A stretch of 25,374 nucleotides of DNA from a virus (lineage: Duplodnaviria > Caudoviricetes): positions 1 to 25,374 of IMG/VR virus record IMGVR_UViG_3300035148_000299; one strand, 5' to 3'. Shown here piece by piece: positions 4,009 through 25,374 of the stretch (position 1 is the first letter of the stretch; each line of letters begins with the position of its first letter). The notes beneath the pieces are model-generated. The model saw nothing but the letters and a program-made list of their open reading frames with translations, was not told where the DNA came from and ran no database searches. A program made the position numbers and the translations under genes.

Positions 4009-7000
4009 GTGGTGTTGACAATCGCATTGTTAGCATGAAGTTCGACAATGCTCAGTTCCAAAAGGGTGTCCAACAGACGATCGACAGCATGGATCGTCTC
4101 AAGAAAAGCACGGATGTAAGCAAGTCTGTTGCTAGTTTTGGGGAGTTGGACGCCGCTGCAAAGCGGATCAATCTTGGTCCTCTTGAGGGAAGCGTAACTA
4201 GCGTATCCAAGAGTTTTATGGCCATGTCTACCGTGGCTATTACAGCATTGTCGAACATTACCACTCAAGCGATGGCCACTGGAGCTCAGCTGGTCAAATC
4301 TTTTACGCTTGATCCGGTGATTGCTGGTTTCCATGAGTATGAGACTCAACTGAATTCCGTCCAGACCATCATGGCCAACACCAGTTCTAAAGGCACTACG
4401 CTGGATCAGGTCAATGATGCTCTTGACGAATTGAATGAATATTCTGACAAGACAATTTACAATTTCGGTGAGATGACCCGGAATATCGGGACATTCACGG
4501 CTGCAGGCGTTGATCTGGATACGTCAGTTTCGGCTATCAAGGGTATTTCTAACTTGGCTGCTGTTTCTGGCTCTAATTCTCAGCAAGCAGCTACAGCGAT
4601 GTACCAACTCTCGCAGGCAATTGCTAACGGTACGGTCCACTTGATGGACTGGAACTCAGTTGTCAATGCAGGTATGGGTGGTGAGGTATTCCAAGATTCA
4701 TTGAAAGAGACGGCTCGTGTTCATGGCGTAGCCATCGACGATATTATCGCTAAAGAAGGTAGTTTCCGAGAATCATTGACGACTGGCTGGTTGAGTAGCG
4801 AAATCTTGCTAGAAACACTTAGCAAGTTCACTGGAGATCTTAGCGAAGAGCAACTTCGGCAAATGGGCTATACCGAAGAGCAGATTGTCGCCATCACAAA
4901 AATGGGCGAGACTGCTGTTGATGCGGCTACCAAGGTCAAGACATTTTCTCAACTTATGGGTACGCTTAAGGAGACTGCAGGCTCTGGGTGGGCTCAGACT
5001 TGGGAAATTGTATTTGGTGACTTTGAGGAAGCAAAAGTCCTTTGGACTGACATCAACAACGTTCTTGGCGGCATGATTGCTGAAACGGCCGAAGCCAGAA
5101 ACCAAATGCTTTCCGGATGGAAAGATCTTGGTGGCAGAACGCTTATGATCGATGCTCTCAAGAACTCATTCGATGCATTGATGTCGGTATTGACCCCTAT
5201 CAAGGAAGCTTTCCGAGAGATATTTCCTAGGAAGACTGCCCAAGAGCTTTACGACGGGACCAAGGCTCTTGCAGACTTTACAGCCGGGCTCAAGCTCAGC
5301 GATGCTGCAGCAGATGGCCTTAAGCGGACTTTCGCTGGGCTATTCGCAGCATTCGATATTGTCAAGCAGGTCATTGAGGGTTTCCTGAGTGTTATTGGCA
5401 GGATGCTTGGAGCTCTTGGTAACGGTGAAGAAGGAATTCTGAACTTCACTGGTGGTCTTGGCGATTTTATTGTCTCGATTGATACGGCACTTCGTGAAGG
5501 CGAGGGCCTTACTAAATTCTTTGAAGTCCTTGGGAATATCCTTGTAATTCCGCTCAACGCAATTAAAATGCTCGCGAATGCTATGAGCAGTCTATTTTCT
5601 GGATTCAAGAAGGATGACGCTGATACAGTTTCAGATTCCATCGGTAAGATCGGAGAGTCTGGCGAAGAGGCCGAGAAGGGTCTAAGCCTTGTAGGAAATG
5701 CTGTAACGACAGTCGGTGATGTTTTCGGCAAATTTGTTGCGTCAATCGAGCCTACTGTTCAGAAGGTTGTGGACCTGTTCACAGAACTTGGTCACAGTAT
5801 CGTTGATATTTTCCAGGGAATCAACTTTGATGCTGTGCTTAGCACGATCAATACTGGTTTGTTCGCAGCATTGACCTACATGGCCCACAATTTCATGAAG
5901 GACTTCAAGGGTGGGCTATTCAATGTCGAAGGCTTGAACGATATTGTTGGTAATCTAAACGATATTTTCGAAGGACTTTCTGGTACTCTTCAGGCATTCC
6001 AAAGCAAGGTTAAAGCAGAAGCCTTGATGGAGATCGCAAAGGCTCTTGCAGTTCTTACAGCCGCAATTGTGGTTCTTGCTGCGATCGACCCGGTACGGCT
6101 AACGACGGCATTGACTGCAGTCGGGGCTGCTTTCGGAGAACTGCTTATCGGCTTCAACATGCTAAATAAGTTCACTTCGGTAGTCAAGTCCATCAAGCTT
6201 GATATTGTGGCGGTTGGTATTACAGCACTTGCTACTGCATTGCTTGTGATGTCCTTTGCAATCAGAAGTCTTGCCAGTTTGAACTGGGGCGAACTTGTAC
6301 GAGGCATGACCGGGCTGATGGCCCTTATGGGCGGCCTTTCGCTTATGATCAAGCCTCTTGCTGCAAGTTCTAAGGGACTTATCCGCACGGCTATTGGGGT
6401 AGGGGTTCTTGGTGGAGCCCTCATGATTATGGCTAGCGCTGTCAGAACCATGGGTGAACTATCCATGGGAACGATTGCTACTGGTCTGTTCGCTATATCT
6501 GCGTCTATCACAGCAACAGCTATCGCTATGCGACTCATTCCTAAAAATGCCATTAAGGTCTCGATGCAGATCTCGTTCTTGGCATCCTCGCTGAGTGTTC
6601 TGGCTGCGGCAGTTAGTATGCTCGGGCAGCTAAGTTTCGCAGACATGGCTACTGGTTTGGCTGGTATTGCTGGTGCAATCGTTATGGTGGCTGGCGCTGT
6701 ACGTATTATGCCCAAGAATATTGCCAAGATTTCATTCGAGCTCCTTGCCGTATCCGTCTCTTTGACGATCATGGGTCAAGCATTGCAAACGATGGGTAAT
6801 CTTTCCATCGAGCAGATGGGCGTGGCACTTCTTGGACTCGCTGGCTCGCTCGGCATTCTTGCAGCCTCGTTGAACCTTATGCGAGGGACTCTAGGCGGAT
6901 CTATGGCTATGGTTGCAGCCGCGGGCGCTTTGATGTTGCTTACTCCAGTGCTCTTGATGTTGGGGTCTATGGGTCTTGACGATATTGGTAAAGCACTCTT

Positions 7001-10994: not shown

Positions 10995-11051
10995 CCTAGA
11001 AGGCATGTATTAGTCTAAAAAACTTTTACATGCCTTCTAGGCTTTTCATTT
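10995..11051 (+). terminator. Intrinsic terminator with a 15-bp perfect stem
   Basis: CCTAGAAGGCATGTA (10995-11009) / TACATGCCTTCTAGG (11027-11041), followed by CTTTTCATTT. Confidence 0.75.
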
Positions 11052-11398: not shown

Positions 11399-11560
11399 AT
11401 GGCAGATATTTTCTTGTGGTTGTTGTTACTAATTTTAATTTTGTTATGGACGTATTTGGCGCACTTATATCTTGAAGAGTATGTGGAAAAAAAGTACCCG
11501 ACAGAAACGGGCGACGAGTATTTCGACAATATTGAAAGGTTCCGGGATGACTTCTCTTAA
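11399..11560 (+). CDS. 53-aa membrane protein (not in ORF track)
   Basis: RBS GAAAGGA then ATG. Hand translation MADIFLWLLLLILILLWTYLAHLYLEEYVEKKYPTETGDEYFDNIERFRDDFS. Confidence 0.65.
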   Translation: MADIFLWLLLLILILLWTYLAHLYLEEYVEKKYPTETGDEYFDNIERFRDDFS

Positions 11561-11663
11561 TACAATTGATCGGTTCTTCATTCTGACCTTGCTGTTTTTG
11601 GCGAACTTGTACATTGAAGAGCATTGTGACAACATCGAAAGGTTCCGGGATGATTTCTCTTAA
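11547..11663 (+). CDS. 38-aa chimeric mini-ORF created by local duplication
   Basis: GAAAGG RBS. MTSLNTIDRFFILTLLFLANLYIEEHCDNIERFRDDFS. The N-terminus matches the start of the 11650 gene and the C-terminus matches the end of the 11399 ORF. Confidence 0.4.
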   Translation: MTSLNTIDRFFILTLLFLANLYIEEHCDNIERFRDDFS

Positions 11664-12673: not shown

Positions 12674-12683
12674 TCCCTTCAAC

Positions 12684-12719
12684 AACCCTCTAAGACCCTA
12701 ACACGGTCTTATGGTTTTT
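12684..12719 (+). terminator. Conserved cassette hairpin A (copy 2)
   Basis: Identical core, TAAGACC at 12691, followed by TTTTTCTTTTT. Confidence 0.75.
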
Positions 12720-12724
12720 CTTTT

Positions 12725-12753
12725 TCGCGTAGAAAACACCGTATATAATGAAG
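12725..12753 (+). promoter_or_regulatory. Cassette upstream element B4 (no RBS follows)
   Basis: TCGCGT 12725, TATAAT 12744-12749, GAAGAAC, then the repeat tract. Confidence 0.8.
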
Positions 12754-12823
12754 AACTTAACTTAACCATAACTTAACCATAACTTAACCATAACTTAACT
12801 TAACCATAACTTAACTTAACCAT
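12754..12823 (+). repeat. Tandem tract of AACTT (x8) and AACCAT (x5) units
   Basis: Read directly: aactt aactt aaccat aactt aaccat aactt aaccat aactt aactt aaccat aactt aactt aaccat. No G on the + strand. Confidence 0.95.
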
Positions 12824-12857
12824 AATCCTAAGACCCTAACAAGGTCTTAGGTTTTTT
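12755..12857 (+). ncRNA. Candidate ~100-nt small RNA (cassette 4 cargo)
   Basis: Perfect TATAAT upstream, no RBS or ORF, and a perfect terminator downstream. Ends are inferred. Confidence 0.55.
12827..12857 (+). terminator. Variant cassette hairpin A' with a perfect 9-bp stem
   Basis: CCTAAGACC-CTAACAA-GGTCTTAGG-TTTTTT. Confidence 0.8.
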
Positions 12858-12870
12858 ATTTGGAGGACTT

Positions 12871-13338
12871 GTGCTTAAACGAGATATTACGTTCGAAGAT
12901 CTTGACGGCAATACAGTCACCGATACATTCTACTTCAACTTGAACAAGTTGGAGCTGGTGGAAATCGAGGCTGAAACTGGCGGTCTTAGCGAGATGCTTA
13001 TGCAGATCGTGGAAGAGAAAGATGTTTCCGCCATTGTTGACGTGTTCAAGAAGATCATCCTGCTTGCATATGGCGAGCGTTCGGCTGATGGCAGGACCTT
13101 CCGCAAGAACCAGCAAATCCGAGATGACTTCGCCAACACGGATGCATTTTCCGAATTGTTTATTGAGCTAGCTACTAATGCTGATAAGGCTGTAGAATTC
13201 ATTCGGGGAATTGTCCCAAGCAATATCGCAGTTGAAGTCAATCCTGTTCAACCTCCTACGCAACCTTTGACAAAGGTTGAGGCTGAGCAGATGAGTCGTT
13301 CGGAGCTTTTGGCCGCATTGAACCGTTTGCCTGAGTAG
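12871..13338 (+). CDS. Conserved phage protein (tail-chaperone-like family)
   Basis: RBS GGAGG, GTG start. MLK..ITF.D.DG......FYFNL.K.EL and AYGERSADG..F.K patterns are recognised as a widespread phage family. Function is uncertain. Confidence 0.7.
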   Translation: MLKRDITFEDLDGNTVTDTFYFNLNKLELVEIEAETGGLSEMLMQIVEEKDVSAIVDVFKKIILLAYGERSADGRTFRKNQQIRDDFANTDAFSELFIELATNADKAVEFIRGIVPSNIAVEVNPVQPPTQPLTKVEAEQMSRSELLAALNRLPE

Positions 13339-13447
13339 TATATTTCTAGCAAGGAGGGAATTGGCCAAGGCTCGGGTTCAGCCTTACTCCGGTGGCCAAT
13401 TTTAAACGACAGCCGATAGAGTCTCCCCCGGCTAAAACATGCGCCCT

Positions 13448-16634: not shown

Positions 16635-19600
16635 GTGGATTTCTACCAGATCAGCACCAAAGAATTGAAGGATGGCTCTGTCGAAGTATTTCCTGACTGG
16701 AAGGTTGGTCGTTCCAAAGATTTGATGATCCGCGGGAAAAGCTTTTATGCCATCTGGGACGAAAAGCTAGGGCTATGGTCTACGGATGAGTATGATGTCC
16801 AGCGAATCGTTGATGAGGAACTATATGCATATGCTGATCAGAAGACTGCATATACAGGTATTCCACATGTTGTGAAAAGTGTAAGGACGTTCAACAACAA
16901 CGTCTGGAGCCAGTTCAAGAAGTTCGTATTCAACTTGAGCGACAACTCGCATCCTCTCGATGAGAAGCTGACATTCCTCGATACACCCGTTACGAAGCAG
17001 GACTACGTCAGTCGTAGACTTCCATATTCGATGGCTCCCGGCGACTGCAGCGCTTGGGACGAATTGATCGGGACTCTATATTCTCCAGAAGAGCGCGAAA
17101 AGATCGAATGGGCTATCGGGGCGGTTATATCTGGAGACGCTAAGAAGATCCAGAAGTTCCTGGTCCTCTACGGTCCTGCTGGTACTGGTAAATCCACTAT
17201 TCTCAACATTATCGAGAAATTGTTTGTCGGCTACACCACATATTTCGAGGCTAAGGCTCTTGGCAGCAGCAACAACCAGTTTGCTACTGAGGCTTTTCGG
17301 CACAACCCATTAGTTGCGATCCAACATGATGGGGACTTGTCGAAGATCGATGACAATACCAAGTTGAACTCGATTATTGCCCACGAAGATATGACTATGC
17401 ACGAGAAGTTCAAGCCTAGTTACACAGCTAGGATTAATGCTTTCTTGTTCATGGGAACAAATCAGCCGGTTCGTATATCTGATGCAAAGTCTGGCATTAT
17501 CCGCAGGCTCATCGATGTGCATCCTTCTGGAGAGAAGATTCCGGTCAATCACTATCACACGTTGATGGCCAGGATCGATTTCGAGCTAGGGGCTATTGCA
17601 CAGCATTGTCTGGATGTTTATCAGACGCTCGGGAGGAACCGGTACAGTAATTACCGTCCGCTCGAGATGATGTTCCAGACCGATATTTTCTTCAATTTCA
17701 TTGAGGCTCATTACGACCTGTTCAAGACTCAAGACGCAGTAAGCTTGAAGCAGGCATATTCCTTGTACAAGGAGTACTGTTCCGAGACTGGTGTGGACAA
17801 GCCCCTGCCCCAGTACAAGGTGCGTGAAGAGCTCAGAAACTACTTCGAGACTTTCCAGACCAGAGGAATTGTCAATGGAGTAGAAGTTCGAAGTGTATTT
17901 AGTAGTTTCACAGCAAATAAATTCAAAGTCGAATCAAAAGAAGACAAGACATTCTCGTTGGTTCTTGAAGAGACGGCTTCTATATTTGACAGGGAGTATG
18001 AAGATTGCGCGGCTCAGTATGCAAATTCGAAAGGATACCCAGGCAAACGATGGGAGAATGTGAAAACGTCCCTATCATCCATCGATACGACGCAATTGCA
18101 TTACGTTATTGTTCCAAGAAACCATATAGTGATCGATTTCGATATTGTTGGTGAAGACGGAAGCAAATCACTTGAGCTAAATCTAAAAGCAGCAAGCTCT
18201 TGGCCGGCAACATATGCGGAATTGAGCAAGAGCGGTCAAGGTGTTCATCTGCATTATATTTACGACGGTGCAGTTGAGGATCTTGCTTCTCGGTATGACG
18301 AAGGCATTGAAGTGAAGACTCTTCTCGGGTATTCATCATTGAGGAGGAAGCTCACTAAATGCAACAATGTCCCGATTCGAACCATATCGGGTGGCCTTCC
18401 ATTGAAGGAGAGAAAAATGTTGCCTGCTAATTCAATTCAGTCAGAAAAAGGTCTTCGAGAATTGATCCAGAGGAACCTTAGAAAAGAGATCCATCCCGGT
18501 ACCAAATCCTCTGTAGACTTCATTCACAAGATTTTGGAGGATGCTTATGCTTCCGGGATGACATACGATGTAACGGACCTCAGATCCACAATTGTTGCAT
18601 TCGCCAACAATAGCACTCATCAGCCATTGGCTGCATTGAAGACTGTCCAACAGATGAAGTTCAAGTCTGAAACTGAGGAAGTCGAGGCTCCAAAGCCTAA
18701 GGACGATCGGTTGGCGTTCTTCGATGTCGAGGTATATCCCAATCTGTTTGTAGTCTGTTGGAAGTTCCAGGGCTCGGACACTGTCGTACGTATGGTGAAC
18801 CCATCACCCCAAGATGTTGAGCAAATGCTCGGTCTGAAATTAGTCGGCTTCAATAATCGGCGGTACGACAATCATATTTTGTATGCAAGAATTCTCGGCT
18901 ATGACAATGCCCAGTTGTACAACTTGAGTCAGAAGATCATCAATGACGGTCTGGGGGCTATGTTCGGCGAGGCTTACAACCTCTCGTACACCGATATTTA
19001 CGACTTCAGCTCTAAGAAGCAGGGCTTGAAGAAGTTCCAGATCGATCTCGGTATATTCCATCAAGAGCTCGAGTTTCCATGGGATCAGCCTGTCCCGGAA
19101 GAAGCTTGGGACAAGGTAGTCGCATATTGTGTGAATGACGTTATTTCCACAGAAGCCGTATTCGAGGATCGCAAGCAAGATTTCGTTGCAAGACAGATCT
19201 TGAGCGAGCTGAGCGGGCTGAGCGTCAACGACACGACTAGGAAGCATACCGCGGCAATCATATTTGGTGATGAGGCAAATCCGCAGAAGCAGTTCGTCTA
19301 TACAGATCTCAGTGAGATGTTTCCGGGGTACAAGTACGAAGCCGGCGTCAGCACATATCGTGGCGAGGTTACTGGAGAAGGTGGATACGTATATTCCGAG
19401 CCGGGCATCTACTCGAATGTAGCTGTTCTCGACGTAGCGTCCATGCATCCGACCTCGATCAAGATGCTGAACCTGTTTGGCCCATATACTCCGAATTTTG
19501 TAGCGTTGACTGATGCTAGGCTGGCTATCAAGCACAAGAATTACGAAGAAGCCAAGCGGATGCTGAACGGGAAGCTAGCACCATATCTGTCTGATCCGGA

Positions 19601-21661: not shown

Positions 21662-21717
21662 ATATCTGTGCAGGGGGTAAGCGGGTTTCAACACCTGGCT
21701 GCCCCCTGCATAGATGT
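21662..21717 (+). other. Long GC-rich hairpin (terminator or processing site)
   Basis: ATCTGTGCAGGGGG (21664-21677) pairs with CCCCCTGCATAGAT (21702-21715) with one G-U. No U-tract. Confidence 0.6.
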
Positions 21718-25178: not shown

Positions 25179-25374
25179 GAAGTCTTATTGAAAACTTGTA
25201 TTATCTTATTAACGATGTAAAATAAGAGCCATTTTCCGTCATTTTTCCCGTCAAATCCACAAAAAAACGCAATTAATAATGTAAAAAAGTTTCAATAAGA
25301 TAATATAACCGTCAAAAATCATACTAATACCTTATTTATCTATACGCGCGAGAGAAGTAATATTATCTTATTAA
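25169..25374. repeat. AT-rich non-coding region with direct and inverted TCTTATT repeats (candidate origin)
   Basis: GTCTTATTGA x2 (25169, 25182), TATTATCTTATTAA x2 (25199, 25361), inverted TTCAATAAGATAATA (25291), CCGTCA x3. Confidence 0.5.

Follow-up and report, generated by a model that had tools for sequence, protein, structure and literature searches.

A gene-less phage cassette whose G-free AACTT/AACCAT tract repeats the TAAC word of terminator loops

What does a phage cassette with a promoter, a terminator, and no gene between them produce? The question is raised by a viral record of 25,374 bases (the window, by which we mean the whole stretch of DNA analysed), in which one unit carries a G-free array of short repeats in the place of an open reading frame (ORF). 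The window is the entire linear record, about 43% complete, and contains a tail module, a tape measure, a primase-polymerase, and a helicase. From its genes and protein matches, the phage is placed in the 1706/AM/AU/BI/CC/DJ siphovirus group, whose members include Gordonia DJ, Rhodococcus CC, Arthrobacter AM/AU/AW, Streptomyces BI, and Lactococcus 1706-like phages; the top polymerase identity to these relatives is about 65%, and the closest matches suggest an actinobacterium as the host. The small genes are arranged in cassettes consisting of TCGC-N15-17-TATAAT, an A/C-rich leader with a ribosome-binding site (RBS), a short ORF, and a common hairpin followed by a U tract; such hairpins number 10 in the window, where the promoter motif has about 11 copies. 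A 50-bp motif with TATAAT, as well as terminators, has already been noted in cluster DJ (PMC9671010). A 99.7% identical contig carries the genome of the same phage further, beyond the window end, and encodes an 883-aa protein with a DxDGD motif (phrog_4291, L266:3129-5780); the DxDGD protein of the group has been proposed as a putative RNA polymerase (10.1101/842583).

The repeat cassette and its counterparts in other contigs

The parsed tract is exactly 70 nt long with 13 units (Table 1), in agreement with the AACTT/AACCAT array described in the original prediction, and the perfect TATAAT, the perfect 9-bp stem, and the T6 tail described there are all present. The TAAC core occurs 12 times in the tract at a spacing of 5-6 nt, and the loop of the terminator-like hairpin adds a 13th copy. 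This is the real unit of the array, and the 11-bp period proposed earlier holds only partially, as the AACCAT spacings are 11, 11, 16, and 16. The RBS is absent as claimed, and the cassette has a leader start of the coding type. Six-frame translation yields only MKNLT* on the + strand, again as described and without an RBS, and Rfam gave no match over the cassette at E values up to 10. The G-free run spanning the tract extends over 78 nt, while the second longest in the window measures 34 nt and 300 base shuffles of the window gave at most 50 nt, so the run is not due to chance. Folding predictions leave the tract unpaired (mean unpaired probability 0.81) and only the terminator folds in the cassette, which fits the single-stranded body originally envisaged. 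The RNA start had been placed near 12755; transcription more likely begins at 12747-12751, at or within 3 nt of the TATAAT end, and the cassette is likely transcribed as an unfolded RNA of 105-109 nt. No promoter lies between the cassette terminator and the start of the chaperone gene, whose RBS is found right behind the terminator.

Table 1. Features of the repeat cassette and its neighbours in the window
Feature	Position	Strand	Remarks
Terminator hairpin of the upstream coding cassette	12683..12720	+	Family-standard, loop CTAACAC; 1 of 10 window copies
Family promoter motif TCGC-N15-TATAAT	12725..12749	+	TCGC at 12725, TATAAT at 12744-12749; about 11 window copies; consensus from 194 family copies
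Leader start GAAGAACTTAAC	12750..12762	+	Coding-cassette type, no RBS after it; compare window leaders GAAGAACCCAAC
G-free repeat tract	12754..12823	+	8 AACTT and 5 AACCAT; predicted single-stranded
Terminator-like hairpin	12827..12858	+	Perfect 9-bp stem CCTAAGACC/GGTCTTAGG at 12827-12851, loop CTAACAA, T6 at 12853-12858
Tail assembly chaperone family gene	12862..13338	+	Pfam PF23803 (Phage_TAC_17), with RBS

Contigs from two different studies (X2 and X3) run gap-free over 12780-12908 and 12792-13028 and join the tract, the terminator, and the next gene; they cover the 3' part of the tract, and its 5' third has no contig that also reaches the promoter. Because these contigs hold the tract independently and with variants of their own, the tract is not an assembly artefact. 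Both carry 12811 T>C (AACTT to AACCT) and 12822 A>C (AACCAT to AACCCT), two changes that fall in the spacers and keep the TAAC core and the freedom from G, and the last 6-8 units are gap-free; four and two more differences, outside these listed changes, lie near the contig ends. In the next gene, 10 of the first 57 bases differ from the window, eight of them at third positions. With an 80% threshold in the contig comparison, which makes only similar tracts visible, the tract changes (2/32) showed no significant excess conservation over third codon positions of the neighbouring gene (8/53, p=0.31). A comparison of 2/32 with 8/19 (p=0.003) was discarded, as its boundary had been picked post hoc after viewing the data. 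Of the five runs compared, X5 gave no aligned contig and the X1 contigs break at terminators, and X2 record 10 was left unused, with 44 bases aligned with 8 gaps and the rest unaligned; it may be an unrelated repeat.

Similar tracts were absent from 133 family loci, from all ten whole cultured genomes, from all 64 promoter-anchored matches in viral contigs, and from the regions upstream of about 40 orthologues of the chaperone gene. The exact tract pattern gave no match in viral contigs and one short unrelated match in genome contigs, a metagenome pattern scan returned three matches, all of them eukaryotic telomere-like repeats, and a loose promoter-anchored scan of 120 loci from 7/64 parts found no array. 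Blastn with the cassette found no match among plasmids, and among phages (36 records) terminator or promoter matches only. In the open-access literature, supplements aside, we found no paper on the repeat RNA or on the RNA cassettes of the family. We regard the repeat cassette as a real, lineage-specific, and unusual unit. In unrelated viral contigs, (AACTT)n/(AACCT)n pentamer arrays (TAACY) are frequent in intergenic DNA, with about 240 stretches (e.g. L144-L263), and the family promoter was absent from all 120 stretches of this kind that were fetched.

Several other features of the window were recorded. Two long and very stable intergenic hairpins head the two cassette arrays (10995-11041, z about -8.6; 21664-21715, z about -7.2). 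A 48-nt direct repeat, 85% identical, lies at the ends of two adjacent small ORFs (11513-11560 and 11616-11663) and is a probable partial gene duplication. The 108-nt intergenic stretch 3' of the chaperone gene (13340-13447) has several stems and folds no better than its shuffles (z -0.4).

RNA cargo under the family promoter

The 133 family loci were surveyed for the promoter, which was found in 57 of them in 194 non-redundant copies. An RBS and an ORF follow within 50 nt in 134 copies and not in the other 60; seven of the latter were left out as probably coding or short leader hairpins, giving 53 ORF-less units, window included. Ten cultured genomes (two scanned whole and the other eight in part) contributed 94 promoters, of which 30 were flagged; 16 of these were left out as coding with an atypical RBS or truncated, and 14 ORF-less folded units remained in ReqiPepy6 (4), Qui (6), CapnMurica (2), Sporto (1), and Zeina (1). 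Since the same promoter fronts ORF-less units in about 53 of 194 cases, RNA cargo under this promoter is a family habit. The suggestion that the cassette delivers a small RNA gains from these structured units of relatives, and the search of relatives for ORF-less cassettes that accompanied it was thereby rewarded. Among the relatives examined, no second single-stranded repeat cargo was seen. ReqiPepy6 and Poco6 are said to possess 'expansion regions'.

The ORF-less units differ from the coding ones in their ends. A stem closing the 5' end onto the 3' end was predicted in 42 of 52 ORF-less units versus 8 of the 134 coding ones; the start of the stem falls at -3 to +1 of the TATAAT end in 33 units. 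Because the closing stems begin there, transcription appears to start right at the TATAAT end and not 6-8 bases downstream, which would suggest a start site of the phage-polymerase type rather than a sigma-70 -10 box. Repeats of a hairpin word, 10-29 nt long, occur in six of the 67 ORF-less units (L030, L111, L094, L022, and L284 and L286 of Qui), and no cargo-free promoter-terminator junction occurs among the ORF-less units listed. The repeat cassette has the lowest G content of the 67 (0.07 vs 0.15 or more) and no end clamp, and both its leader and its terminator are of the coding-cassette type.

The survey also brought up RNAs of other kinds. The end-clamped units with the same hairpin two to three times lie at L030:6042, L111:4586, L094:4670, L022:2487, L064:4469, and, in Qui, L284:6591 and L286:5754, with a GTGAAAAA-hairpin layout common to L111 and Qui; we consider these repeated-hairpin units strong candidates for multivalent decoys. 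tRNA-like RNAs stand under the family promoter in L052-L061 (about 5400-6500), L028:338, L029:1077, L039:605, and ReqiPepy6 (L280:1198). Their anticodon loop is swapped for a tetraloop or an irregular loop, and they are mostly missed by ARAGORN, with a weak Rfam tRNA match for L052. A multi-hairpin RNA family starting AAGACACG...GTAGG is found at L031:3459, L033:5029, L083:3995, L094:4051, ReqiPepy6 L280:1321, and Qui L284:8011, with no Rfam match at gathering score in L031 and L094. A Pistol ribozyme (Rfam RF02679) scores above gathering score at L031:15034-15098 in a related phage.

The TAAC word and what may read it

The word repeated in the tract recurs in the terminators of the family, where 33 of 125 stem-loops contain TAAC. 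Among distinct stem-loops, it is present in 16 of 89 from IMG relatives (shuffle mean 2.7) and in 17 of 36 from GenBank relatives (shuffle mean 1.3), counts that were reached in 0/1000 shuffles in either set. Control hairpins contain it in 0 of 26 cases in relatives lacking the promoter and in 1 of 21 cases in unrelated loci; these controls are small, related terminators are not independent, and the difference between IMG relatives and unrelated loci is not significant (p=0.19). The loop (C/T)TAAC(A/C)(A/C) stays constant while the terminator stems vary, and in L070 and L086 it reads TAACCAT, the exact tract unit. By these comparisons, TAAC is a conserved terminator loop on many different stems, which is new here, and since the loop is conserved on variable stems, something presumably reads it.

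The word is also present in gene leaders, as AACYTAAC, and in the leaders of some family members (L425, L435, L442, L456, L472) AACTTAAC/AACCTAAC immediately precedes the RBS. The first bases of the tract equal the leader variants AACTTAAC or AACCTAAC of other family members, and the last unit in X2 and X3, AACCCT, equals the flank preceding the other terminators of the window. Because leader variants, flank, and loops all match its units, the simplest account of the tract is amplification of the word that the cassette already has in its leader, flank, and loop. The decoying of a host defence protein or nuclease, as first proposed, loses ground here, as the repeated word instead matches the phage's own terminator loops and leaders. 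An antisense action on the other terminators, of whose TTATGGTT arm AACCATAA is the reverse complement, was considered and rejected as the main mechanism; at -9.5 kcal/mol the duplex does not reach the stability of the hairpin (-10.8), nor does it rank with the best genome matches.

Our preferred reading, to which we give a probability of 0.35, is that the unit is a gene cassette that was emptied and whose leader and loop word then multiplied to form an RNA sponge for a putative reading factor. A coding-type cassette would have lost its gene, and slippage of the leader/flank word would then have grown the tract. Transcription would set out near 12750, and the RNA-polymerase-like protein of the phage itself may carry it out. 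The putative reader of the UAAC loop could be the phage polymerase or a phage factor, or a host KH-domain protein, among which we take NusA to be a candidate. A review of KH domains, in its accessible part, offered no UAAC consensus. An abundant RNA with 12 unpaired TAAC copies would titrate the predicted reader and shift the read-through balance. As a result, termination or 3'-end binding at the hairpins of the cassettes would fall, and read-through into core genes that lack promoters would rise. Several core genes, including those for the tail chaperone and the helicase, have no promoter and sit directly behind such hairpins, so read-through must be allowed or controlled.

A sponge is in keeping with the enrichment of the word in terminator loops of both relative sets, with the family leaders containing AACTTAAC/AACCTAAC, and with the ORF-less units under the same promoter (53 in family loci and 14 in five cultured phages), some of which repeat a hairpin word and none of which, as listed, is a bare promoter-terminator joint. 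It is further supported by the two listed X2 and X3 changes, which spare TAAC and leave the last units gap-free, and by the DxDGD polymerase-like protein in the nearly identical contig. On the other hand, the motif is only 4-5 nt long, is linear in the tract, and is held in a hairpin loop in the terminators, its loop conservation could act at the DNA level among terminators that are not independent, and the enrichment over unrelated loci is not significant for the IMG relatives. The uniqueness of the tract (133 family loci, 10 whole cultured genomes, and 64 promoter-anchored matches), its lack of significant excess conservation over third codon positions, the abundance of TAACY arrays in unrelated viral contigs, and the fact that the other RNA units of the family are end-clamped and folded, as the repeat cassette is not, also count against the sponge. 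We consider rather unlikely a wider version, in which a 3' UAAC terminator-loop code of the group is read by a protein, perhaps its single-chain RNA polymerase or a partner thereof, and one lineage has made an all-code RNA, among an unannotated, family-wide set of decoy-like RNA cassettes, into a CsrB-like titrating switch for its own read-through.

The alternative that survives best is a neutral relic, which is possible though doubtful. Here, the gene would have been lost by recombination of AACCC-like leader and terminator-flank words, and slippage would have grown a functionless microsatellite that is perhaps transcribed. The coding-type leader and terminator, the AACCCT unit shared by the relatives with the flank of other window terminators, the perfect copies in the window, the restriction of the tract to one lineage when TAACY arrays are common elsewhere, and the lack of significant excess conservation are all consistent with such a relic. 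However, no comparable microsatellite was found in the 133 family loci or in 26 GenBank stretches, the unit register is gap-free though the strains have diverged at 10 of 57 nt at the start of the next gene, and the promoter and terminator are intact.

We consider it unlikely that the RNA acts as a decoy, luring away a defence RNase or RNA-binding sensor of the host by offering numerous copies of a word to cleave or bind, such as AACU or CNUAA. In tRNA-Lys, -Met, and -Arg, CNUAA is the end of the loop, made up of the anticodon plus AA. The tRNA-like and repeated-hairpin RNAs of the family and the lineage-specific occurrence, which fits an arms race, agree with a decoy, as do the precedent of a repeat-expanded pseudo-ToxI in phage PhiTE (PMC3475682) and the existence of an AACU-cutting MazF (PMC7291052), of whose target the tract has eight copies. 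However, that MazF comes from Nitrospira, not from an actinobacterium (PMC7291052); the AACCT variant of the relatives loses one AACU, no Rfam match was obtained, a linear substrate would simply be cut, and the word is already accounted for by the phage's own elements.

A DNA-level role is improbable. The bottom strand would present TATGGTTA five times to the phage primase-polymerase as a priming array or origin. The central domain of this protein (window 17952-18671; domain order helicase, Prim-Pol, PolB) has no relative in sequence searches of the PDB and is structurally closest to the NrS-1 and pRN1 Prim-Pols, the top match of its model (pLDDT 89) being NrS-1 Prim-Pol at E 1.3e-5, TM 0.30, and 13% identity. 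NrS-1 is reportedly equipped with a 'minisatellite origin'. TATGGTTA matches at 7/8 bases the site TTTGGTTA at which NrS-1 primes (PMC8718748). However, NrS-1 also primes at GTG, and more efficiently (PMC8718748), and its site, present once in the deposited genome, adjoins the primase gene and is surrounded by GGTTA copies in either strand, whereas the tract has one orientation. None of 50 loci that include the homologous polymerase contains the tract, and the family genomes show no TAAC/TAACC strand bias. The helical-turn or iteron alternative of the original prediction is weakened by the irregular phasing and by a better origin candidate, an AT-rich region with convergent repeats that follows the helicase gene in the window and about 11 relatives; the NrS-1-like primase speaks in its favour. 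This AT-rich non-coding region (window 25179-25374 and L266:1435-1696) is likely the replication origin.

A cis element is improbable too; in this reading, the tract would serve as a loading site in the chaperone 5' leader and control read-through of its own terminator. TRAP and HutP are ring proteins with sites at a 5-6-nt period, which the TAAC spacing resembles, and the chaperone gene, having no promoter of its own, has its RBS right behind the terminator; against this, no antiterminator fold is possible, about 40 relatives lack such a leader before the orthologue, and other promoter-less genes stand behind terminators without a tract. Very improbable, finally, are an assembly artefact and a micro-peptide gene for MKNLT without a leader. 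Repeats can mis-assemble, the other studies offer no one contig that extends over the entire cassette, and the ATG overlaps the predicted start; against this, the X2 and X3 contigs carry the tract with their own variants, A follows TATAAT in 14% of family promoters so that an ATG is not required, and the peptide would leave 60 further bases unexplained.

Comparison with known systems

Protein-titrating phage small RNAs are known from few cases, and the cassette provides a ready pull-down bait and points to the conserved UAAC terminator loop. Knowing the reader would test how the RNA-polymerase-like protein of the group starts, stops, and reads through, and the phages with unannotated RNA cassettes (ReqiPepy6, Qui, CapnMurica, Mudcat, Sporto, Zeina) are cultured and tractable. 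Even as a neutral element, the tract would show how a cassette that has lost its gene and kept its signals can give rise to a new RNA.

Among phage elements, the T4-type PeSL cassettes (PMC2839356) and the cluster DJ motif (PMC9671010) likewise bracket small shuffled genes with repeated promoter/terminator units, whereas here one unit holds a repeat tract and no gene, and the accessible text of those reports mentions no RNA cargo. The end-clamped RNA units of the group share with the repeat cassette the promoter without an RBS or ORF, a similar length, and the same variable genome region, and some repeat a motif two to three times; they are folded and closed by a 5'-3' stem, whereas the repeat cassette is unclamped, lacks the closing stem with U tract of that class, and has a coding-type terminator. 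As with the NrS-1 site, a bottom strand with five 7/8 matches to TTTGGTTA occurs in a phage with a structurally related, if remote, Prim-Pol (13% identity, TM 0.30), but the tract is one-oriented, forms part of a transcription unit, is separated by 4 kb from the polymerase gene, is absent from relatives, and has no phased or convergent repeats at a conserved position. A TRAP/HutP attenuator would have an antiterminator structure or a site overlapping the terminator; here only the terminator folds.

ToxI-type repeats are about 34-36 nt long and form pseudoknots. The tandem structured repeats of a type III antitoxin or pseudo-ToxI are missing from the cassette, where the period is 5-6 nt with no fold and no Rfam match. 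Like pseudo-ToxI of PhiTE (PMC3475682), it is an array of non-coding repeats in a phage genome that changes through expansion and could titrate a protein, but the PhiTE repeats mimic a known antitoxin RNA, whereas the short unstructured units here have no known cognate system.

In its proposed function, the cassette is comparable to the CsrB/RsmZ sRNAs, which carry multiple GGA motifs, mostly in hairpin loops. Both are short, independently terminated RNAs (predicted in the case of the cassette) repeating a word that a protein reads (here, putatively) on other transcripts, and the predicted promoter, intrinsic terminator, and lack of an ORF correspond. The differences are that the word here is UAAC and not GGA, in a G-free and unpaired RNA with no hairpin display and no match to the Rfam models, and that the RNA is phage-encoded. 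As expected of a multivalent sponge, the word recurs on other transcripts of the same system, in terminator loops and leaders. Although the cassette falls outside the CsrB, ToxI, and iteron classes, we tentatively suggest, by analogy, that it may work like a CsrB-type sponge.
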